Of a DNA stretch of 64,000 bases, positions 6,737-43,504 are shown piece by piece. The translations under genes were made by a program, and so were the position numbers. The DNA comes from Elusimicrobiota bacterium. Lineage in GTDB: Bacteria; Elusimicrobiota; Elusimicrobia; UBA1565; UBA9628. The stretch lies in the NCBI GenBank assembly GCA_023249675.1, contig JAHFCE010000008.1, forward strand, positions 39,246 through 103,245, given 5' to 3'. The stretch's first letter is position 1, and the number at the start of each line of letters is the position of its first letter. The notes beneath the pieces are model-generated. The model saw nothing but the letters and a program-made list of their open reading frames with translations, searched no databases and had not been told where the DNA came from.

Positions 6737-9700
6737 GTGCGGTGTTTGAAGTGTCAATCCGTTAGTCCCGATCAGAACAAATTCTGCGGTTCCTGCGGCA
6801 GTCCCCTGGCTCTCGCCGCGCCGGTCCCTTCCTCGACTGTCCCGGCCTCGGCCCATTCCGAAGAGCGCAAAGTCGTCACCATCCTCTTTGCCGATGTGAA
6901 GGGATTCACCAGCCTCTCGGAACGTTTAGATCCCGAAGAGGTCCGGGATATGATGCAGGAGATTTTTGCGCGTCTGACGGAGGTGATCGGCCGCTACGGC
7001 GGCGTGGTCGACAAATACATCGGGGATTGCATCATGGCCCTTTTCGGGGCTCCGAAAGCGCATGAGAACGATCCGGAGCGAAGCGTTTTGGCGGCCCTGG
7101 GAATGCAGCAGGCACTGCAGAAATTCCGGCGGGAAAAGAATCTGGAGATCGGCATGCGCGTGGGCGTCAACACCGGCATGGTGCTGGCGGGCTATGTGGG
7201 CAATCGTTCCGTGGACTACACCGTCATGGGCGATGAGGTCAATATCGCTTCCCGGCTTGAACAGGCCGCCCCGGTCGATGGAATTTTGATCAGCTCGAAG
7301 ACTTTTTCTCATGTGTCCGATCTATTCGATTGCGAAGCCCTGCCGGCGATCGCGGTCAAAGGCAAGGCGGAGCCCGTGGCCGCCTACCGCGTTTTGAGGG
7401 ACAAGAGGAAGCGCAGCTCTCATGACAAGGTTCGTTCCCGCAGCATCTCGACTCCCATGGTCGGCCGGGACGCCGAGTTAAAACTTATGCTGGAGAGCGC
7501 CCAATCCTGCCGGCAGGCCGGGCAAAGCCGCTTGATTTTTGTCAAGGCTTCCCCCGGCGGCGGCAAGAGCCGTCTGCTCTATGAGTTCCATCGTTGCGAG
7601 AAGGCGCTGGCCGCCCCTCCTCATTTCTTTGTGGGACGGGCTTCGCCCTACACCGTGAACACCTCCTACTATCTTTTCGGTGAAATTCTGAGGGGTCAAT
7701 GCGGCATCGCCGATGAGGACAAGGCGGCGGTCGTGCGCTACAAGCTGCTGGCGGGAGTGGGTTCGGTGATGTCGACGGCCGGCGATGAGGAAATCGAGGA
7801 AACCACCCATCTGATGGCCTCGCTGCTCAATATCGATTTTCCAGGGAGCCCCTACTTGGCGCCTTTGCGCGAGGATCCTATCCAGCTCAGACAGCGCGCC
7901 CACGGGGCCTTTCTGCGGTTTTTCAGATCTTCGAGTTCAGAGCCGACCCTCCTGTATCTCGAGGACTTGCATTGGGCGGACCATCCTTCCCTCGATTTGA
8001 TCGCGGAAATTTATCAGGACAATCGCGAAAGGCCCTTGCTGATCGTGGCTCTTGCGCGGCCTGAGTTTTTCGAGCGCTTCCCTTCCTTCTTGGGGTCTTT
8101 CGCGGGGGTTGAGAAAATCGAGTTGGCGCCGCTGGGTGAGGAGGCCGTGCGCGCTCTCATCCGGGAGCTGCTCAAGCCTATGGGTCTTATTCCGGAAAAC
8201 CTCTATCGTCTTGTCATCCGGAAATCGGAGGGCAATCCCTATTACGTGGAGGAATTGATCAAGAGATTCATCGAGGCCGGAGTGATCGAGAAGGGGGATG
8301 CCGGCTCTCCCGGGCGGGTTTTCCAAGAGAAGCTGCAGCAGATAAAAATTCCAGACACGATCCAAGGCCTTCTCCAGACGCGGCTCGATGATCTCAAAGA
8401 GGAGGAAAAAGGGGTCTTGCAGCGGGCCGCCATCGTGGGGGGAACTTTCTGGCAGCGCGCCGTCGACATTTTGTTGGAGGACCTTGAGGTGTCCAGCACC
8501 GGACCGGTGCTGAGCGATTTAAGCCGGAAAGAGTTTATTTTGCCGTCTAAACACTCCGCGCTCTTCGGCGATGAATTTATGTTCAAGCACGCCCTGCTTC
8601 GGGATGTCACCTATGAGACGATCCTCAAGAAGAAGCGCACCATCTATCATGCCTTGGTGGCCGAGTGGTTGGAAAAAAATTCCGGGGACCGCAAAGAAGA
8701 GCATTTGCCCCTGATTGCCATACACTATGAGTTGGGCCATAAGCCTGAGCAAGCCCGCGAGTACTATTTCTTGGCGGGCGAGCAGGCCCGCAAGACCTTC
8801 GCCAATCACGAGGCCCTGTCTTATTTCGACAAGGTGATTCAGCTGCAGGAGAAGCCCCGCTTTTCTCATTACCGGGTGCGGGGGGCCACTTCAGACGTGT
8901 TGGGGGATTATGAAAGCGCTTTGAAGGACTACCAGGCCATGCTGGGCGTGTGCCGCAATCGCTTGGATGAGGGCGTGGCGTTCAAGCACTTGGCCGAGAC
9001 TCATATACGCCTGGGGCATTATGAGCTGGGGCGGGATTTCGTGGAAAAAGCTCTTCAGGTCGGTCAAGAGCTCAAGGACTGGAAGATGTGCGCCGACAGC
9101 CTCAATCTCAAGGGGCGGATCGATCATCATACGGGCGAGTCGGACCGGGCCCTTGAATGCTACGCCCAATCCATCGCGATCCATCGTCAGAACGGCAGCA
9201 TCTTGGGCGAATCGCGTGCTTTAGGCAACCAGGGGGTGGTTTATGTCCACAGGGGCGAATACGATAAGGCGATTGCAGCCTATCGGGCGGCCCTTGACCT
9301 TGACCGCGCTCAAAACAACAAGCAGCGCATGACCATGATGATGTCGAATCTCGGCGAGTGCTACCAGTTTTTAGGCGCCATGGAGCAGGCCATTGGACAT
9401 CACCAGGAGGCGCTGGCGCTGGCCCGCGGCATCGGCTATAAAATCATGGAGATCGAGACCCTGCGCAACCTCGGCATCGAGCATGTCCATCAAGGGAGAA
9501 TGGAGCAGGGTTTCTCGCTTTTGCGGGAGTCTCTGCGGATGGTGGATGAGGTCCAGGATATGGAGCTGCTTCCCCAGGTACTCTATAGTCTTGGGGAGGG
9601 GCTGTTCCTCGGAGGGCAGAAAGCAGAGGCGTTGACATTGGCTCAAAGGCTGCTGGACATCGCGGAGAAAAACAGCGTTAAGGATTACATCGCCAAGGGC

Positions 9701-16737: not shown

Positions 16738-16814
16738 GGCGCGTTCGTCTAGCGGCCTAGGACGCTTCCCTCTCAAGGAAGAGATCACGGGTTCAAATCC
16801 CGTACGCGCCACCA
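16738..16814 (+). tRNA. tRNA-Glu(CTC)
   Basis: 77-nt cloverleaf. Acceptor GGCGCGT/ACGCGCC, anticodon loop CTCTCAA, T-loop GGGTTCAAATCCC, CCA encoded. Confidence 0.85.
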
Positions 16815-28331: not shown

Positions 28332-28417
28332 CGTGTCTCCGTGAAAGCGACCGCGTCAAATTATACCAAGCGATCCAAGGACGCAAGTCCGCGAATGCGG
28401 CTTCCTGTTCGCTCTCC

Positions 28418-28436
28418 GTCTAACGCCGGGTTGGGC
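28418..28436. repeat. Short GTCTAAC..GTTGGGC palindromic core pair just past the last cassette ORF (possible degenerate terminal attC)
   Basis: RYYYAAC and GTTRRRY cores only 5 bp apart. Too short for a complete attC. Confidence 0.3.
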
Positions 28437-28446
28437 TTCAGCCTGC

Positions 28447-28857
28447 TTACCAGGCCAGCAAATCCTTCAAGTACCACGGCTCAAGTGCCGCAATGACCAA
28501 TATCCGAGCTGTCGCCATCAGAACGATCGCCTTCCACAAGGCCAGCGTCTTCCTGTTTCCGATCAGCGCGCCGCTCACGCCGATTTCGAGAGGCAAGAGG
28601 AGAAAGCCCAAATATGGAAGTTGAGATAAAAACAGGACGATCGGCATGCTCGCGCGTAATGCGGCCCAATGGGCCTTCGGAAGATCGATATAAAACAGGA
28701 AAGCCCATGCGAGGCCAAAAAAGAATATCGGCGAGCAGAAGATCGCATAGACGCCGGTGCTCTGATTGAAAAAAAATCCGAGGCCAAGCACCGCGACGGC
28801 AGTCGATCCGGCGATGAGTCTCTTGCGTCTGGTCGATTCACTCATATGTGAGCCCAA
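28447..28857 (-). CDS. Cassette ORF: small polytopic membrane protein, unknown function
   Basis: Four TM helices. Low-GC. Confidence 0.4.
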   Translation of the reverse strand: MGSHMSESTRRKRLIAGSTAVAVLGLGFFFNQSTGVYAIFCSPIFFFGLAWAFLFYIDLPKAHWAALRASMPIVLFLSQLPYLGFLLLPLEIGVSGALIGNRKTLALWKAIVLMATARILVIAALEPWYLKDLLAW

Positions 28858-28861
28858 CGAG

Positions 28862-28916
28862 AGGGTGAGCGGCGGCTATGAAGGTACTCCTTTTACGCTG
28901 TTAAGTCGTTCTTGAC
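28862..28916. repeat. attC-like site (short, about 55 bp): GCCCAAC...GTTAAGT
   Basis: Left half aligns with the other attC copies (GAGGGTGAGCGGCGGCTATGAAG). Overlaps the stop of the DUF2975-like ORF. Confidence 0.5.
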
Positions 28917-29370
28917 CGGCATTCTGCAAAATCCGTTCAAACATCACCGCCGCTGTGGCGCTAAGAGCAGAACCGAAGGTAATGAGGGCGCCCATAAAAA
29001 CACCGCCTGCACGATCATCACTGTTGCTCAACATAATGAAAAGTTCTCCTACCGCAACAGAACCGATAATGGCTAACGCACAAAGTTTTATAGTCCGCAG
29101 AGCCGCCTCTGTTGCTTGCGAGAACGCCTTGTTTTGTCCGATGTATCCCAACACCTTGAATGCCTGATAGAGTGCCACATAAAATGGAATGGACGCTAAA
29201 TACGCATACGCCAAAAAGGGGTCTTTGAAATAGATCTCAAAGAGCGTGGCGTGCGCGTTTCTACCTTCGATGCGGGGCTCCCAAAGCATGAGAGCAAGAG
29301 CCCCAATGCTGGTGAGCATAATGACTGCCTGAAGGAATTTCGTTGGAATGACGAGTGACCGCTTTTTCAT
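28876..29370 (-). CDS. Cassette ORF: DUF2975-like membrane protein
   Basis: Four TM helices with YoaS/DUF2975-like pattern. Low-GC. Confidence 0.4.
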   Translation of the reverse strand: MKKRSLVIPTKFLQAVIMLTSIGALALMLWEPRIEGRNAHATLFEIYFKDPFLAYAYLASIPFYVALYQAFKVLGYIGQNKAFSQATEAALRTIKLCALAIIGSVAVGELFIMLSNSDDRAGGVFMGALITFGSALSATAAVMFERILQNAGQERLNSVKGVPS

Positions 29371-29379
29371 CTTATGGCC

Positions 29380-29456
29380 GCCGAACGCCGAGGATGGGCG
29401 GCGGCTATTAAGATATTCCGCACTGAGTCTTCGTCCGCTCTATCCATTAGTTAGGC
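29380..29456. repeat. attC-like site (77 bp): GCCGAAC...GTTAGGC
   Basis: About 80% identical to the 30092-30171 copy, including the internal inverted repeat GCGGCGGCT/..GAG..CGC. Confidence 0.6.
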
Positions 29457-30065
29457 AGCCTCCGACGTATTCTGTGTTGCGCTTACATCAAGATCTCGCA
29501 GCAGGCCATCATGAAGGTCGTAAATCCAGCCGTGCACGGTCAGAGGACGCCCCTTGGCCCATGCCGAGGTGAGAATTGGAAGACGGCTGAGCTCTCGAAC
29601 CTGGCTAATCACGTTGAGTTCGCAGAGGCGTCGCCAACGCGCGTCCGCGTCGGTTCTACCGTCAATATCGGCCGCTTGGGAACGGCGTATCTCGCGTATT
29701 GGTGCAATCCAGCGCTCAAGCGGCTTCGGAACGGGTGCCCCAAGTGCTGCTTGAACGCCGCCACAGCCATAGTGGCCGCATACGATGACATCTGTGGTGC
29801 CAAGAAATTCGATCGCATACTGAAGAACGGCGATGCAGTTTAAGTCATCCGCGCGAACGATATTGGCCACGTTGCGGTGAACGAACAACTCGCCGGGTTC
29901 GAGGCCGACGATTTCGTTGGCCGGCACACGACTGTCCGCGCAACCGATCCAAAGGTAGCGGGGTGTCTGAATTGCGCACAGGCGTGTAAAATACTGCGGA
30001 TTCTGACTAACGCGCTTGGTTGCCCAGGCGCGATTGTTGGCGAAAAGTTCCGGCAAGTAACGCAT
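29451..30065 (-). CDS. Cassette ORF: beta-class carbonic anhydrase
   Basis: CADSRV and HYGCGG zinc-ligand motifs. Confidence 0.8.
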   Translation of the reverse strand: MRYLPELFANNRAWATKRVSQNPQYFTRLCAIQTPRYLWIGCADSRVPANEIVGLEPGELFVHRNVANIVRADDLNCIAVLQYAIEFLGTTDVIVCGHYGCGGVQAALGAPVPKPLERWIAPIREIRRSQAADIDGRTDADARWRRLCELNVISQVRELSRLPILTSAWAKGRPLTVHGWIYDLHDGLLRDLDVSATQNTSEAA

Positions 30066-30091
30066 TTGTTTCCCTTGAACCTAAATGGCTG

Positions 30092-30171
30092 GCCTAACGC
30101 AGGGGCTGACCAGCGGCGGCTATCAAGATATTCCGCACTGAGCCGCCGGCCGTTCTATCCATTGGTTAGGG
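30092..30171. repeat. attC-like site (80 bp): GCCTAAC...GTTAGGG
   Basis: Terminal inverted cores plus an internal inverted repeat (CAGCGGCGGCT...GAGCCGCCGGC). Lies between the brnA stop and the carbonic anhydrase start. Confidence 0.65.
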
Positions 30172-30402
30172 CAATGGGTGACGAGTTGCATAGGCATCAA
30201 TCAGTTTGCGGATCATCTTCTGATAGGGCGTGTGATATTTCTGCGCGGCCTTCTTGAAGAAGGCAACGCTCGACTTGCTGAGCGCCATGGTTATCTTCAC
30301 GCTCTCCTCCTTGAAGGCCAGTTCTTCAGGAGGGGGCAGGGAATCCCTGACCACGCTCAACGCGCCAAGAGGTTCATCCGTGTATTTGATTTTCTTTTTC
30401 AT
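30166..30402 (-). CDS. Cassette ORF: BrnA-like ribbon-helix-helix antitoxin
   Basis: MKKKIKYTDEPLG... with C-terminal RHH pattern (VKITMALSKSSVAFFKKAAQKYHTPYQKMIRKLIDAY). Its start lies inside the 3' end of the BrnT-like frame. Confidence 0.6.
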   Translation of the reverse strand: MKKKIKYTDEPLGALSVVRDSLPPPEELAFKEESVKITMALSKSSVAFFKKAAQKYHTPYQKMIRKLIDAYATRHPLP

Positions 30403-30646
30403 AAAGAGCCTTCCCTTTTCGCCAGTAGCCCGCTCCAAAGAGGCGAATCTTTTTCTCTCTGTACGTGAATCGAACGGTGAGGATTCCGTCGCCGACGCGG
30501 CCGAAGCAATACAACCGTTTTTCCTTCTGACTGTGCTCCAGATCTTCCGCGATAACTCTTTTGCTATCAGCGAATGCATGTTGAGCCGTTTCAAATGAAC
30601 CATGCGCCTCTTTAAGTATATATTGTATATGTATAAATAGCCATAC
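30374..30646 (-). pseudogene. BrnT-like (DUF497) toxin reading frame lacking a canonical start; out of frame with the SD-preceded ATG at 30603
   Basis: Frame -3 encodes ...HGSFETAQHAFADSKRVIAEDLEHSQKEKRLYCFGRVGDGILTVRFTYREKKIRLFGAGYWRKGKALYEKE*. The only ATG, preceded by AAGAGG, is in another frame (MVHLKRLN...). The 145-aa six-frame ORF is a chimera of both. Confidence 0.5.
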
Positions 30647-30699
30647 TTATTTATGGTCTAAAATAACATCATTTCGTCCCTGACGATTTGGCTGAATTG

Positions 30700-30777
30700 C
30701 CCTAACGCAGAGGATGACGAGCGGCGGCTATCAAGATCTCCATGCAAGCCGCCGTCTCGTCAATCCAATGGTTCGGT
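30700..30777. repeat. attC-like site (78 bp): CCCTAAC...GTTCGGT (degenerate cores)
   Basis: Aligns over about 80 bp with the 30092-30171 copy (AGCGGCGGCTATCAAGAT shared). Confidence 0.55.
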
Positions 30778-30800
30778 GTCCACTGCAATTTCATTTTAAC

Positions 30801-30873
30801 GCCGTTCATGCCGTTGCCTTCAAAGCCGTTTCGCCGTTCAGCCGTTTACGCCGTTTTGTCCGTCCTTCCGTTA
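30801..30873. repeat. Array of six GCCGTT direct repeats (8-15 bp spacing) plus one TCCGTT, between the caspase stop and the attC-like site
   Basis: GCCGTT at 30801, 30810, 30825, 30833, 30841 and 30850. TCCGTT at 30868. Confidence 0.5.
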
Positions 30874-30930
30874 CCCTGCATTAGAAATCTTTCTGCGGAC
30901 ACAAAATTAAAAATGTTTGAGATCATGGAA

Positions 30931-32346
30931 CTACTTCAGGCGTACTATCTCTTCCGCAGAGCCGGAACCCAGCATCGCCGGCGTCTGCTCGCGGTTCTGT
31001 CGGCGCGCGTCGTCCTGGACCTTGCTCGCGAGATAGTCGAAGAGTTTTTTCGCCCTGACGACTCCGTCGGCGTCGGCCGCGGCGCCGCCCAGGCCCTTCA
31101 GGAAGTGGTAGGTGAACGTCCCGTGACCCTGGTCGTCGCGGACGGTCGTGATCTGATCGGCTCCCGTGGCGGCGAAGACGGTCATTCGGTCCGCGACCGG
31201 CTGGACGCTCTCCGTCTTCGTGACCAGAGGGCGCGCGCCTTTGGCGAGGACGGAGCGTCCTCCGGCGCCCGAGAAGCAGGCGTCCAGGGCGACGATGACT
31301 TGCTTGACCTTCAAGCCGCCGAGCTTCTCGTAGAGGCGCTTGACGGGGTAGGCCGTGTTTTCAAGGAAACTGGGGTCGCCGTCCCAGGGCACGAGGTAGG
31401 ACGCGCCGGAGGAGGGATCGGGGGCTCCATGGCCGGAGAAGTAGAAGAAAACCCGACTGTTGGGCGTGACGTTCTTGGGAAGCCATACCTCGAGGAACTT
31501 CTGCAGGGCGGTGAAGCCCGCTTTCTCGCCCAGCAGGGAAACGACGTTGCGGCTGGGGTAGCCCATCGCCAGCAGGTGGTTCTTGACGGCTTGCGCGTCG
31601 CGCTCCGCGAACGCGGCTTCGGGCAGGTCCGAGTATTTCGAGATGCCCATGACAATGGCGAAGTCGTCCGGGCGCTGCGCGAGCTTGAGCGCGGAAGCGT
31701 CGACGTCCGAGTGGATCTCGGGCGCCGGTTTCGCGGGAGCCGCCTGGCCGGCCGCCACCGCCTCCGTCACCAAGCTCTGCATCTCGGCCTTGGAGATTCC
31801 CGACCCAGAGGGCTTCGCGAGCTCTTTGCGTTTGAGGCTCTCCGCGCGTTGCGCCATCACTTTTTGGTGCAGGGTGCTGCCCGGATAAAAGTTCGCCCGC
31901 AACATCTGGCCCATCCCTTTCCAGGGGTTGCTGAAGGGGGAGGAGTAGATTTCCTCGTAGTAAAGCTCCTCCTTCGTGTAGGCGGAGAGGGCCTGGATTC
32001 CGTAATGCATGCGCAGCGTGTTTTGCGGCGGCGGCTCTCGGAACGGGCCGAATTTCCCGAACATGGTGTTGACGATCACGTCAGCGTTGCGGGGTTCGTT
32101 TGGGTTGGCGATCAGGAATATGTGCCAGGAGGGATTGGCCATCTGCATCCGGGTGATGATGATGTCGGTGTAGACAGACGCGGCGGAGGTGACGCCGAAG
32201 CTCAACTCCTGGTTGGAATTTCCCGTCTCAACGGTGACCGTGGTTCCGCCGCCCTTGACGCGCTCCGCGCCGCCGCAGCCAGTGAGAAATCCTCCGCAAC
32301 CAAGAGCGACAATTAAAACCGCTGCTCGATGTACCAAAGGTGCCAT
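30931..32346 (-). CDS. First cassette ORF: lipoprotein with C-terminal caspase-like (peptidase C14) domain
   Basis: Lipobox LTGC. Catalytic His in FFYFSGHG and Cys in VIVALDACFSGAG. GGAGGA RBS 9 nt upstream. High GC, unlike the other cassettes. Confidence 0.75.
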   Translation of the reverse strand: MAPLVHRAAVLIVALGCGGFLTGCGGAERVKGGGTTVTVETGNSNQELSFGVTSAASVYTDIIITRMQMANPSWHIFLIANPNEPRNADVIVNTMFGKFGPFREPPPQNTLRMHYGIQALSAYTKEELYYEEIYSSPFSNPWKGMGQMLRANFYPGSTLHQKVMAQRAESLKRKELAKPSGSGISKAEMQSLVTEAVAAGQAAPAKPAPEIHSDVDASALKLAQRPDDFAIVMGISKYSDLPEAAFAERDAQAVKNHLLAMGYPSRNVVSLLGEKAGFTALQKFLEVWLPKNVTPNSRVFFYFSGHGAPDPSSGASYLVPWDGDPSFLENTAYPVKRLYEKLGGLKVKQVIVALDACFSGAGGRSVLAKGARPLVTKTESVQPVADRMTVFAATGADQITTVRDDQGHGTFTYHFLKGLGGAAADADGVVRAKKLFDYLASKVQDDARRQNREQTPAMLGSGSAEEIVRLK

Positions 32347-32542
32347 TGACAGTTCCTCCCGTTCCTAATAATTTCAGTGCTGAGCCAGGTACGCCGAACT
32401 TATCAGTATGCGGTTCCGCATAGTGCGACTTCCAATGTTAATCATACTTCGAATTGTGGAGAGAAAATCAGGGCTTTGCCAATGGGGGCGAATATTAATA
32501 TTGCGAAAGGCCGCGATGGGCGACGGTATAGCATCGGTGAGG
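32347..32542. other. AT-rich intergenic region between the intI stop and the first cassette: candidate attI plus cassette promoter
   Basis: GC drops sharply. Contains a GTTAATC core-like sequence (32436-32442). No attC copy here. Confidence 0.35.
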
Positions 32543-33745
32543 TCATTTGGAACCGAGCCCAAGTCGGTCCGCGGGGCTCTGCACGCCGCGTCCTCCGCGA
32601 TTCAGGACATGGGTGTAAATCATCGTGGTGCTGACATCGCTGTGCCCCAGCAGCTCTTGGATCGTGCGAATGTCGTAGCCGTCCTCCAGGAGATGGGTGG
32701 CGAAGGAATGCCTCAAGGTGTGGCATCCGGCCGCCTTGGTGATGCCGGCGTCGATGCGCGCTTGGTGAAAGGCCTTTTGAAGCACCGATTCGTGGAGGTG
32801 ATGCCTTCTCCTTTGGCCGGTCTCGCGATCCACATAGTGGCTCGCGGCGGGAAACACCCATTGCCACCCCCACTCTTTGTCGGCGTTCGGATACTTTCGC
32901 GCCAATGCATTTGGCAGCTCTACCCGGCCCAGGCCCGCCGTGAGATCGTCCTCATGCTGTCGTTTGACCGCGGACAGGTGGCGCTGAAGGTCTTCGCGAA
33001 GCCCCGAGGGCAAGGTCGTGTAGCGGTCTTTGCCGCCTTTGCCCGAACGCACGACCAGTTGATTGAGGCCCCAGTCGAGGTCCTTGACTCTGAGCTGGCA
33101 GCACTCGAGCAGGCGCAGTCCCGAGCCGTAGAGGAGCATCGCCATGAGGCGAGGCACGCCGCGCATGCGGTCGAGCACATGGCGCACCTCATCTTTGCTC
33201 AGGACGACCGGCAAGCGCTCCGGTCGCTTGGCGCGCACGACGCCCGAGATCAAGCCCAGCTTGCGGCCCAGGCCGTGCTCGAAGGCGAACAGGAGCGCGT
33301 TGAGCGCCTGATTTTGAGTGGAGGCGCTGACATGTCCGGCCTCGGCCAGGTCGGACAGGAAGCGGCCGACGGCGGCCTCGTCGAGCTCCGCGATCGGGTG
33401 CTCGGTGTGCTCAAGGAGCCGCCGAGTCCATGCAACATAGGCGGTTTCGGTGCGCGGGCTGAAGTGTCGGGCCCTGATCGCCGTCCGAACCTTGTCGAGG
33501 AGAGCATCGCATGCGCGCGAAGGGCGGAGGGAGGACGTTGGGGAGCCGGCGAGCTCGACGCGATCATCGGCGAACAAGGCGGTGAGGCGGGCGAGCGCGT
33601 CCTCTTCGCGAGGAACGGACCAGCATTTTTCCGCGTCGTGCCAGCGGCGTCCGGGCACCGTCTTGATCCTGGCGACGCGTTCGGGGGCGTACGAAAAGAA
33701 AACGAGGAGGCGGCCGTTCTCGGGGCGGACGACGATCGAAGCCAT
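32543..33745 (-). CDS. intI: Integron integrase IntI (tyrosine recombinase) with an extra N-terminal domain of about 75 aa
   Basis: IntI-specific insertion ALARKYPNADKEWGWQWVFPA. Catalytic region HTLRHSFATHLL...LLGHSDVSTTMIYTHV. The N-terminal MASIVVRPENGRLLVFFSYAPERVARIKTVPGRRWHDAEKCWSVP is not part of canonical IntI. Confidence 0.85.
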   Translation of the reverse strand: MASIVVRPENGRLLVFFSYAPERVARIKTVPGRRWHDAEKCWSVPREEDALARLTALFADDRVELAGSPTSSLRPSRACDALLDKVRTAIRARHFSPRTETAYVAWTRRLLEHTEHPIAELDEAAVGRFLSDLAEAGHVSASTQNQALNALLFAFEHGLGRKLGLISGVVRAKRPERLPVVLSKDEVRHVLDRMRGVPRLMAMLLYGSGLRLLECCQLRVKDLDWGLNQLVVRSGKGGKDRYTTLPSGLREDLQRHLSAVKRQHEDDLTAGLGRVELPNALARKYPNADKEWGWQWVFPAASHYVDRETGQRRRHHLHESVLQKAFHQARIDAGITKAAGCHTLRHSFATHLLEDGYDIRTIQELLGHSDVSTTMIYTHVLNRGGRGVQSPADRLGLGSK

Positions 33746-43427: not shown

Positions 43428-43504
43428 TGGAGGTGCGAGCGGGATTCGAACCCGCGAATAATGGTTTTGCAGACCATCCCCTTGGACCGCTTGGGTATCG
43501 CACC
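43428..43504 (-). tRNA. tRNA-Cys(GCA)
   Basis: 77 nt. Acceptor GGTGCGA/TCGCACC, anticodon loop CTGCAAA, T-loop GGGTTCGAATCCC, CCA encoded. Confidence 0.85.

Follow-up and report, generated by a model that had tools for sequence, protein, structure and literature searches.

Genes and features of the locus

The window analysed here is the whole 64-kb stretch of DNA, part of a 637,593-bp contig on which housekeeping genes lie on either side of the locus. An integron integrase gene is followed on the same strand by five cassettes within 4 kb, and nothing further of the array was found in the window. The features, in the order in which the minus strand is read, are as follows.

32543-33745, minus strand: intI, an intact ORF for an integron integrase of 400 aa (TIGR02249, 427.1 bits, cutoff 265; PF00589, PF13495)
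33551-33745, minus strand: predicted HARP-like domain at the IntI N-terminus (about residues 1-65), recognized through profile, fold and bridge-protein links
32393-32499, minus strand: putative attI platform block, ending in GTTCGGC (32399-32393), with a proposed crossover at G32399 / T32398
32453-32482, minus strand: candidate cassette promoter Pc, TTGGCA-18 nt-CACAAT, within the attI block, from a consensus scan
30706-32398, minus strand: cassette 1, a caspase-family (peptidase C14) lipoprotein gene (30931-32346; PF00656, NF047832), a repeat block and attC1
30798-30889, minus strand: AACGGC-repeat block, GATTTCTAATGCAGGG and then seven AACGG(C) repeats, directly 5' of attC1
30700-30777, plus strand (= bottom strand): attC1, intact, with R' CCCTAAC at the 5' end and R'' GTTCGGT at the 3' end
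30098-30705, minus strand: cassette 2, a brnT remnant and a brnA-like antitoxin gene (PF04365, PF14384)
30092-30171, plus strand: attC2, foldable, with mid-stem mismatches and a bulged G and T
29386-30097, minus strand: cassette 3, a beta-carbonic anhydrase gene (29451-30065; PF00484, 168 bits; NF007756, 234 bits; GC3 0.60)
29380-29456, plus strand: attC3, degenerate, with a 3-nt deletion in the 5' arm
28858-29385, minus strand: cassette 4, a DUF2975 membrane protein gene (28876-29370; PF11188, 76 bits; GC3 0.51)
28852-28905, plus strand: attC4 half-site, reduced to the R'-L' arm and a portion of the loop
28424-28857, minus strand: cassette 5, a gene for a 132-aa membrane protein (28447-28845; GC3 0.66)
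28418-28436, minus strand: putative collapsed attC remnant (GCCCAAC-CCGGC-GTTAGAC), with which the array ends distally

A family of four related repeats

A preliminary description of this DNA had reported four homologous copies of an imperfect palindrome. All four exist, and the truncated copy (28852-28916) begins at 28852, not 28862. They are absent from the rest of the 64-kb window, in which the 18-nt core AGCGGCGGCTATCAAGAT, with up to two mismatches allowed, matches these four sites only; the next-best matches have 4-5 mismatches and lie in GC-rich coding DNA. By alignment, identity among the copies is 70-90%, with certain pairs at 88-90% and a mean column identity, flanks included, of 71%.

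On its bottom strand, an attC site is an imperfect palindrome that runs from an R' box (5'-RYYYAAC) to an R'' box (5'-GTTRRRY), and bulged (extrahelical) bases on the 3' arm mark this strand (PMC5027507). The three full copies are imperfect hairpins of 77-80 nt with RYYYAAC/GTTRRRY ends, an unpaired spacer and two conserved bulged bases, and their terminal boxes read GCCTAAC...GTTAGGG, GCCGAAC...GTTAGGC and CCCTAAC...GTTCGGT. The internal inverted repeat and terminal cores that had been ascribed to every copy are thus present in these three. The attC4 half-site retains a single core, GCCCAAC (28852-28858), and has no internal inverted repeat because only one arm and part of the loop are left, the 3' end of the DUF2975 ORF standing in place of the R''-L'' arm.

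Seventeen homologous sequences, taken from the window and from nine contigs of metagenomes, were aligned; those outside the window lie in arrays or beside intI. The AAC triplet is invariant across the alignment, and 13 of the 26 stem pairs show compensatory changes on both sides. Paired cells amount to 89.4%, compared with 23-45% when the 3' partners were slid, a control that is biased toward the hairpin model since that model was derived from one aligned sequence. None of 500 shuffles reached any of the structure and covariation measures. RNAalifold independently returned this stem, 18 bp long, and placed the bulges at alignment columns 67 and 74, where all 17 sequences have them; columns 16-17 and 79-80 are unpaired, and the loop is about 23 nt long. 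A covariance model, proposed as a check in the preliminary description, was run over the window with filters off and recovered the three full copies as the only significant matches (86, 84.1 and 68.3 bits; E >= 0.04 for all others). As the model was built from plus-strand copies, the strand asymmetry of its scores is no evidence on polarity. Less specific searches performed poorly. Generic RYYYAAC...GTTRRRY pairs combined with folding were uninformative as a window-wide detector, as coding DNA of this 65% GC genome out-folds the true sites (attC2 ranked 33rd), and a pattern scan of the metagenome returned 120 loci, of which about nine are true homologues and the others chance matches to a GC-rich 16-mer. 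Searches of Rfam at gathering and permissive thresholds gave no match within the integron.

The integrase and the polarity of the array

The intI gene is full-length and free of frameshifts. Residues 84-395 of its product align to VchIntIA (PDB 2A3V; E = 2.8e-78), and the alignment spans the IntI-specific insertion and the motifs with the catalytic R/K/H-R-H/Y residues. The stop codon of intI is 1766 nt from attC1, and successive attC sites are 529-715 nt apart. An integron is called complete if at least one attC site, under a 4-kb clustering rule, lies within 4 kb of intI (PMC4889954). Both an IntI with the additional domain and an attC site no more than 4 kb from intI are found here.

It is the 3' arm of the plus strand that carries the bulged bases, so the plus strand would be the recombinogenic bottom strand and the cassettes would be read on the minus strand. 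This polarity agrees with the strand of the ORFs: intI and all of the cassette ORFs are on the minus strand, and the array is 3' of intI. The integrase gene is therefore transcribed toward the array, a reverse layout that also occurs in 16 related loci. The plus strand shows an excess of G over its whole length (+0.03 to +0.09), whereas the minus strand carries 84% of the coding DNA; as these two replication-strand indicators conflict, no claim is made as to leading or lagging template. A PBP1A gene upstream of intI was considered as conserved synteny and rejected, as it is kept in none of the related IntI loci.

The same attC family lies beside an IntI of the same clade, in the same layout, on two independent contigs, L113 (68% IntI identity) and L022 (74%), the latter with a frameshifted intI. 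In a third locus, L122 (Elusimicrobiota; IntI 66% identical), three attC sites are found 3' of intI and on the same strand. Wherever contigs are long enough, the attC family is accompanied by an IntI of one clade. The locus is present in one other assembly only (L001), in identical form, and this comparison therefore documents neither gain nor loss of a cassette.

That the system is chromosomal rather than mobile, as had been suggested from the similarity of the repeats, is supported by the length of the contig, the housekeeping neighbors, the mutual similarity of the attC sites and the lack of a match to the attC family in the plasmids searched. Sedentary chromosomal integrons share the chromosomal location and the similar sites; they often hold large arrays of tens to hundreds of cassettes, a trait that is not seen in this array of five.

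The cassettes

Across 28400-30900, GC content drops from about 0.67 to about 0.50, and the GC3 of cassettes 2-5 is 0.48-0.67 compared with 0.73-0.91 in flanking genes. Cassettes 2-4 have the form expected of gene cassettes, namely a single, mostly promoterless, co-oriented ORF followed by an attC site; cassette 1 is atypical. In cassette 2, the brnT remnant (30374-30616) has no start codon and, by frame analysis, is missing about 20 codons; it matches PF04365 BrnT with 47.4 bits over profile positions 16-75 of 77. The brnA-like antitoxin gene (30166-30402) matches PF14384 BrnA with 18.4 bits, under the cutoff. Toxin-antitoxin cassettes usually carry their own promoter, and a promoter/operator-like palindrome is located at 30616-30635; L113, L122 and L022 have intact brnTA with the same palindrome. 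The membrane protein of cassette 5 matched no family.

The preliminary description had each repeat at or overlapping a stop codon. This is the case for three copies: attC2 overlaps the brnA stop codon (30166-30168), attC3 that of the carbonic anhydrase gene (29451-29453) and attC4 that of the DUF2975 gene (28876-28878). attC1 overlaps none; the nearest true stop codon, that of the caspase gene at 30931, is 154 nt away, with the repeat block between.

AACGGC-repeat blocks travel together with this attC family. The block in the window is 90-93% identical to its equivalent in L022, another is present in L058, and in L113 the block occurs as ORF-less cassettes of about 190-210 nt.

It is possible that the caspase gene is no normal mobile cassette at all, and that it is a host gene that was either captured by an ORF-less cassette of AACGGC repeats plus attC or rearranged between attI and such a cassette. 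The GC3 of the gene is 0.83, which is host-like, and 0.48-0.67 elsewhere in the array; a cassette from a related Elusimicrobiota genome would look host-like too. The caspase family is greatly expanded in Elusimicrobiota, with one paralogue on the same contig, and the nearest relatives (66-67% identity) are found among housekeeping genes with no attC there. At the 3' side, the 190 nt past the gene recur as a unit in an unrelated cassette of L022 (90-93% identity) and stand alone as the ORF-less cassettes of L113. The first 20-30 nt past the proposed crossover are similar to the beginning of the L022 cassette (23 of 2000 shuffles), but this 5' similarity is weak, and neither the junction nor an intermediate form was found. 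An apparent target-site-like duplication flanking the gene was rejected as not significant, since 289 of 2000 shuffles score as high. If the caspase gene did enter an ORF-less cassette, it would bear on the long-open question of where cassettes come from, for which the present evidence is weak.

The putative attI site and promoter

Comparison of four loci (the window and three related ones) points to an attI site, a crossover point and a promoter directly 3' of intI. An nhmmer profile of the four loci matches the window at 32499-32393 (E = 9e-24). Pairwise identity is 56-68% over the 75 nt that lead to the GTT and 22-48% over the 60 nt beyond, and the sequences can be read as an L-like box, 5-6 nt and GTTRRRY. 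The candidate promoter Pc within the block may drive the cassettes: a TGGC-N18/19-YACAAT motif is found at the same position in L113, L122 and L022, and the region gives two promoter-like sites by consensus match where 1.7 are expected. A small hairpin in the attI block, with seeming covariation among the window, L113 and L122, was dropped as it is absent in L022.

Decay of attC sites along the array

With increasing distance from attI, the attC sites are intact, mismatched, deleted or mismatched, reduced to a half-site and collapsed to a remnant. Single-strand folding had been proposed as a check on all four copies, and folding far better than shuffled sequence was obtained for one site only. 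attC1, with a bulged T and A on its 3' arm, folds at -21.5/-23.1 kcal/mol (z = -5.07; 0 of 200 shuffles), scores 86 bits against the covariance model and is 90-93% identical to copies on other contigs. attC2 folds at -16.3 kcal/mol (z = -1.1) and scores 84.1 bits. attC3, in which the apical stem by alignment has AGTCTTCG in place of AGCCGCCG, folds no better than chance (-10.7 kcal/mol, z = -0.04) and scores 68.3 bits. attC4 forms no hairpin (z = +0.6) and was undetected by the covariance model.

The putative remnant at 28436-28418 is 11 nt past the stop codon of the last cassette ORF, where GC content regains the host level, and is the sole RYYYAAC-N2-8-GTTRRRY match in the window (against an average of 0.33 in shuffled sequence, both strands counted). 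Its covariance-model score is low (8.7 bits, E = 5), so its identification rests on position and R-box similarity. Judged by these features, only attC1 and probably attC2 retain the look of competent sites. The other three (attC3, the attC4 half-site and the collapsed fifth) seem to have decayed, so the distal cassettes are probably fixed in place.

A small, partly decayed chromosomal integron

The repeats are very probably the attC sites of a complete, sedentary, reverse-orientation chromosomal integron that is small and partly decayed and belongs to an uncultured, Elusimicrobiota-like bacterium. The initial assignment of attC-like sites at cassette boundaries is borne out by attC anatomy with covariation and by the single co-oriented ORFs of foreign composition in between. 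To that assignment the analysis adds the integrase, the reversed position of its gene, the putative attI, the fifth remnant and the finding that the proximal sites alone still seem functional. In such a system, the single-stranded plus (bottom) strand of an attC site would fold into a hairpin in which the 5' R' box (RYYYAAC) pairs with the 3' R'' box (GTTRRRY). The spacer would stay unpaired, the long L stem would carry two extrahelical bases in its 3' arm, and about 23 nt would form the terminal loop. After binding the folded site and cutting it within the AAC triplet, IntI would release a cassette (attC x attC) or, alternatively, integrate a circular one at attI (G32399 / T32398), just 3' of intI. 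Inserted cassettes would be read on the minus strand, downstream of the promoter-like site in the attI block. The analysis shows the repeat family with its structure, covariation and polarity, the family of the integrase, the attI block and how the cassettes are organized; we infer cleavage, promoter activity and present-day activity.

An inactive locus, in which the repeats are former attC sites and the array is a fossil that no longer exchanges cassettes, appears less likely than not. The integrase gene is full-length, with a strong family score and catalytic motifs that align to 2A3V, in contrast to the frameshifted intI of L022; the attI block is conserved; and attC1 is not only intact but so similar to copies on other contigs that it argues for recent spread or purifying selection. 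What an inactive relic would explain is the decay of attC sites with distance from attI (86, 84, 68 bits, undetected and 8.7; z of -5.1, -1.1, 0 and +0.6), the truncated brnT toxin gene without a start codon, the mere five cassettes, the identical second assembly and the host-like GC3 of the first cassette, which suggests long residence or a non-cassette origin. It is highly improbable that the repeats are REP/MITE-type dispersed repeats or intrinsic terminator hairpins unrelated to site-specific recombination, the former being the outcome that the preliminary description had named as fatal to its reading: their palindromic form and their intergenic position at gene 3' ends would fit, but no scattered copies exist in the 64 kb and an intact integrase is encoded beside the first copy, no T-tract follows the stems and none was called terminator-like, the repeats have conserved RYYYAAC/GTTRRRY ends and asymmetric bulges, the link to one IntI clade is constant where contigs are long enough, and Rfam has no matching family.

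As an integron, the locus is routine and of a known kind, a further small chromosomal case in a phylum that has been little studied. More is gained from the comparisons: an attC family with clear covariation that belongs with a defined IntI subclade, and a putative attI site and promoter candidate for reverse-orientation integrons, in which attI sites are rarely defined.

A putative HARP-like domain at the N-terminus of IntI

The N-terminus of IntI appears to be HARP-like, of a type that binds branched DNA, and the domain is apparently undescribed. A total of 809 cluster representatives match the domain, many of which carry it 2-4 times in tandem, in SNF2 helicases and in long tyrosine recombinases, and the matched segments in these representatives are PF07443 HARP. 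Direct Pfam matches to PF07443 are all sub-threshold (11.9 bits, cutoff 25), although HARP was the sole family matched by four IntI N-termini. A bridge protein, P0010, matches IntI (E = 2e-13) and Pfam HARP (40.5 bits), with SMARCAL1 HARP 4O66 as its top PDB match (E = 0.0018). An AF2 model of the IntI domain (pLDDT 79) has a predicted beta-beta-alpha-beta-beta-alpha fold, to which the XPB N-terminal domain and 4O66 come closest in the PDB (Foldseek probability 0.91-1.0, E = 0.014-0.035, TM-score 0.39-0.48). Like HARP of SMARCAL1 and the archaeal XPB N-terminal domain, it can be linked via P0010 to the motif G-R-h-h-x-F-x-Y...hA-x-hK-x-hP-x-R-x-h-D/H...K-x-W; unlike them, it is a predicted domain present as a single copy and fused to a recombinase, not a helicase.

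We tentatively propose that the integrases of this subclade, from the window, Elusimicrobiota, Nitrospiraceae, Fidelibacterota and T. denticola-like sources, may be natural HARP-type/IntI fusions in which the added domain helps to find or hold the ss/ds junction at the base of the attC hairpin, or the replication fork at which hairpins form. The AACGGC blocks, which are like the L-box arm and travel as ORF-less cassettes, might in that case be accessory binding arrays, and the caspase gene in its cassette shell could be a snapshot of a chromosomal gene becoming a cassette. If real and functional, the HARP-like domain would be without precedent on an integron integrase as an accessory module for recognizing DNA structure, and would give a direct handle on how integrases locate folded single-stranded substrates.

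Comparison with known integrons

With class 1 mobile integrons, the locus shares an IntI that is 50% identical to IntI1 over residues 70-395 and the logic of its proposed GTTRRRY crossover, and the putative simple attI site (L-like box, 5-6 nt, GTTRRRY) presumably resembles attI1. It differs from them in lying on no plasmid or transposon and in having no resistance genes, attC sites that are homogeneous rather than heterogeneous, a promoter candidate in the attI block 3' of intI and not inside intI, and an extra N-terminal domain.

The Vibrio cholerae superintegron (VchIntIA, VCR) is likewise chromosomal and sedentary with mutually similar attC repeats, its structure 2A3V aligns end to end with the IntI core, and the bottom-strand hairpins of the two systems agree in their extrahelical bases, unpaired spacer and terminal loop. 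There, however, intI and the array are divergent, whereas here they are co-directional; the bulges here are G/T/A and T/A; and VchIntIA is without the N-terminal HARP-like domain, the alignment to 2A3V beginning at residue 84. The Vibrio superintegron holds well over a hundred cassettes, compared with five here.

Treponema denticola-type integrons differ in phylum, the present locus being Elusimicrobiota-like as judged by its best IntI and caspase relatives. Their arrays are long and dynamic, whereas the one here is tiny and in part decayed, and its attC sites belong to a different sequence family. Among the related loci themselves, the putative attI follows intI directly in the window, whereas L113, L122 and L022 have brnTA between intI and attI. 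Like the locus described here, Treponema denticola-type integrons have a reverse orientation and attC sites that are homogeneous within the array, and the IntI of a contig labelled T. denticola (L169) is 47% identical over residues 15-395, a range that includes the N-terminal extension.

Occurrence and folding of the attC repeats

A repeat search of the whole window returned, as its top family, the four copies that a preliminary description had proposed as attC-like palindromes of a chromosomal integron (attC1 to attC4, numbered outward from attI), with start-to-start spacings of 529, 715, and 608 nt and longer pairwise matches of up to 88–90% identity. The alignment of the four copies has a mean column identity of 71% and an invariant core, GCGGCGGCTAT-AAG. 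The 18-nt core, searched with up to two mismatches, occurs within the 64 kb at these four sites only, and a covariance model (CM) run with filters off scored the full copies at 86, 84, and 68 bits, no other match in the window being better than E = 0.04. Because the core is limited to four sites and the CM matches only the full copies, the repeats are real, non-random, and local. The truncated copy, attC4, is present, but it starts at 28852 rather than 28862 and consists of a single arm that cannot fold, so the internal inverted repeat once ascribed to it falls away; nor does the description of the copies as lying at stop codons hold for the 30700 copy (attC1).

Folded as single-stranded DNA, the 30700 copy reached -21.5 kcal/mol on the plus strand and -23.1 on the minus strand (z = -5.1; 0 of 200 shuffles as good). 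The fold of the 30092 copy (attC2) was weaker (z = -1.1), that of the 29380 copy (attC3) did not rise above chance, and none formed in the truncated copy. A pattern scan of metagenome contigs returned mostly chance matches, with true homologues on nine contigs, several as arrays; 17 attC copies were aligned and a 26-pair hairpin model was tested on them. The model paired 89.4% of cells versus 23–45% with the 3' partners slid, a control in which it is favoured by having been drawn from one aligned sequence. Changes on both sides were seen in 13 of the 26 pairs, 0 of 500 shuffles reached the model on any of five measures, and RNAalifold independently gave the same 18-pair stem, in which one base is left unpaired at each of columns 67 and 74. 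The hairpin shows every attC feature: ends of RYYYAAC (5', AAC invariant) and GTTRRRY (3'), an unpaired two-by-two spacer, a loop of about 23 nt, and, on the 3' arm, two bulged bases at a distance of seven positions.

The attC identity of the repeats is upheld by their terminal cores, bulges, spacer, and loop and by the recurrence of the family beside IntI. Dispersed REP/MITE repeats and terminators were excluded, as the copies are confined to the array in the 64-kb scan, their terminal cores and bulges are conserved, the family recurs beside IntI, and no T-tract follows the stems. The family was found in no plasmid, and there is therefore no sign of a mobile integron.

Integrase gene and polarity of the array

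All larger ORFs between positions 28447 and 33745 lie on the minus strand. The features of the locus are listed below, with the crossover that bounds each cassette set at the R' box.

Features of the integron locus
32543–33745, minus strand: intI, integron integrase (TIGR02249, 427 bits; cutoff 265)
33551–33745, minus strand: HARP-like N-terminal domain of IntI (residues about 1–65)
32399–32393, minus strand: proposed attI crossover site GTTCGGC, same as the R' box of attC3
32398–30706, minus strand: cassette 1, caspase-family gene
30931–32346, minus strand: caspase-family lipoprotein gene of cassette 1 (GC3 0.83, host-like)
30798–30889, minus strand: seven AACGG(C) repeats, immediately 5' of attC1
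30705–30098, minus strand: cassette 2, brnT remnant and brnA-like gene
30097–29386, minus strand: cassette 3, beta-carbonic anhydrase
29385–28858, minus strand: cassette 4, DUF2975 protein
28857–28424, minus strand: cassette 5, small membrane protein
28418–28436, minus strand: collapsed fifth attC remnant (R'' GCCCAAC, 5 nt, R' GTTAGAC)

The intI product matches the Pfam families Phage_integrase and SAM_4, and its residues 84–395 align to VchIntIA (PDB 2A3V; E = 3e-78) across the integron-specific insertion and the motifs with the catalytic residues. The integrase sequence was located on an ENA contig of 637,593 bp, amid housekeeping neighbours, and on a single short Logan contig that is identical. 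The best relatives, of IntI and of the caspase alike, come from Elusimicrobiota metagenome-assembled genomes. The window holds genes for tRNA-Glu(CTC) (16738–16814, plus strand) and tRNA-Cys(GCA) (43428–43504, minus strand); neither adjoins the integron, so its insertion site is not a tRNA gene. A distant tyrosine recombinase on another contig (L089, 783–1577), 32% identical to IntI over residues 90–396 and not an IntI by score, adjoins two attC copies of the window's family (5–90 and 553–638).

In an attC bottom strand, the R' box (5'-RYYYAAC) is at the 5' end and the opposite arm holds the extrahelical bases, near L'' (PMC5027507). Since the bulges in the window are on the 3' arm of the plus strand, the plus strand is the bottom strand and the cassettes, in keeping with their ORFs, read along the minus strand; this argument is independent of the CM, whose strand preference exists by construction. 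The two usual indicators of replication direction disagree: the plus strand is G-rich in each 8-kb block (skew +0.03 to +0.09), yet the minus strand carries 84% of the confidently coding DNA, so they assign the attC bottom strands to neither the leading nor the lagging template. With intI on the minus strand and the array at its 3' side, the integrase gene is transcribed toward the cassettes.

A proposed attI site and the platform

A block of about 105 nt just ahead of the first cassette-type ORF is common to the window and the loci of its closest IntI relatives (L113, L122, and L022), and its last part consists of an L-like box (GCATAC or GTCTAAT), 5–6 nt, and GTT(C/A)G(G/A). Pairwise identity among the four loci is 56–68% up to GTT and 22–48% beyond, a drop that would be the pattern expected of a platform–cassette junction. 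Inside the block, TTGGCA-18 nt-CACAAT (32482–32453), one of two promoter-like sites in 5.8 kb and conserved as TGGC...YACAAT in all four loci, is a candidate cassette promoter. In L113 (2094–2619), L122 (about 2240–2729), and L022 (about 1640–2200), an intact brnT-brnA pair carrying a conserved palindrome, CATACACTGTATGTATA, belongs to the platform and separates intI from attI, whereas in the window attI directly follows intI and a brnTA with the relatives' palindrome sits in cassette 2 (30166–30636). Its toxin gene is without the start codon and about 20 codons; the antitoxin is intact.

Cassettes and their decay

Blocks of five to seven AACGG(C) repeats, spaced by about 9–12 nt, stand immediately 5' of attC sites of the window's family, at 30798–30889 in the window, about 465–560 in L022, about 1357–1400 in the further locus L058, and about 60–180 and 262–392 in L113; there is a resemblance between the repeat and the L'' arm (GAACGGAC) of these sites. 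Block and attC together are 90–93% identical between the window and the unit ending an unrelated L022 cassette, and make up ORF-less cassettes (about 190–210 nt) in L113. Elusimicrobiota have a hugely expanded caspase family, a paralogue lies on the same contig as the window's gene, and the closest orthologues (L202 and L203) lie among housekeeping genes in ordinary chromosomal context with no attC. The caspase gene may be a host gene taken into an AACGGC-repeat cassette, with weak evidence at the junction.

On the minus strand of L022, between the second attC site (891–975) and the one at 381–467, a cassette of the ORF-less type is broken after GAATTTCTAAT by about 290 nt comprising a 48-codon ORF, a palindrome that is imperfect and about 110 nt long, and a second GATTTCTAAT at the end, which looks like an insertion with a 9–10 nt duplication. 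The first L022 cassette holds a second, different brnT-like toxin–antitoxin pair, served by a TTGACG-17-TATAAT promoter of its own; its attC is shorter and belongs to another type.

GC content drops from about 0.67 to about 0.50 over 28400–30900, and GC3 is 0.48–0.67 in cassettes 2–5 versus 0.73–0.91 in the flanking genes. The farther an attC site lies from attI, the poorer its quality: attC1 is intact, the stem of attC2 contains mismatches, attC3 has lost 3 nt and its apical stem is damaged, and attC4 survives as a half-site, fused to the DUF2975 ORF at that ORF's end. The collapsed remnant, 11 nt past the last stop codon, marks the distal end of the array and looks like the product of a deletion of the whole hairpin interior. 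The integrase looks intact. On the simplest reading, the platform would be live, with one or two proximal cassettes still mobile and the distal tail fixed in place; a fully inactive relic is less likely. The preliminary description is correct, and the locus is very probably a reverse-orientation chromosomal integron, complete, small, and in part decayed.

A HARP-like extension of the integrase

IntI has about 80 extra N-terminal residues with no Pfam cover at E <= 0.01. An exhaustive search found 809 cluster representatives related to this N-terminus, many of them SNF2 helicases or long tyrosine recombinases with two to four tandem copies, and the matched segments of those relatives are Pfam HARP (PF07443). 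Direct Pfam matches of the extension are sub-threshold; across four independent IntI N-termini, HARP is the sole family that they bring up. A bridge protein (P0010), 43% identical to IntI (E = 2e-13), is above the HARP threshold and has SMARCAL1 HARP (PDB 4O66) as its best PDB match, on the IntI-matching segment. The predicted model of the extension (pLDDT 79) adopts a beta-beta-alpha-beta-beta-alpha-beta fold, and its best solved matches, with weak E-values of 0.014–0.035, are the archaeal XPB N-terminal domain and 4O66. Sequence and model together suggest a HARP-like N-terminus related to the HARP or substrate-recognition domain of SMARCAL1 and the XPB N-terminal domain.

The extension is limited to an IntI subclade (the window, L113, L122–L124, L126, L149, L155, and the T. 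denticola-like L169) and is absent from all plasmid IntIs among the best 5000 matches. In L149, five tandem copies of a 21-nt unit, GGTGGCTGAGYGGTATCACCC, lie at 8831–8956, about 1 kb upstream of the Fidelibacterota intI. A literature search for a HARP domain tied to tyrosine recombinases or integrons found no paper.

Comparison with known integrons

The reverse layout recurs with the same attC family in L113 (IntI 68% identical) and L022 (74%, frameshifted), and is also present at the Elusimicrobiota locus L122 (66%). IntI relatives from genomes with detectable attC arrays (L122–L201) show it at 16 loci and the classical divergent layout at seven, so the reverse layout is common in this part of the IntI tree; it is also seen in IntIs without the N-terminal extension. 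Contigs of IntI relatives often end just 3' of intI, which would be the natural outcome if assembly halts at repeated attC sites. Transcription of intI toward the cassettes is the atypical arrangement described for Treponema (PMC3607928), whose layout the integron of the window shares. The HARP-like domain on the integrase is the sole element that may surprise a specialist; the kind of system is already known, and the window adds another example.
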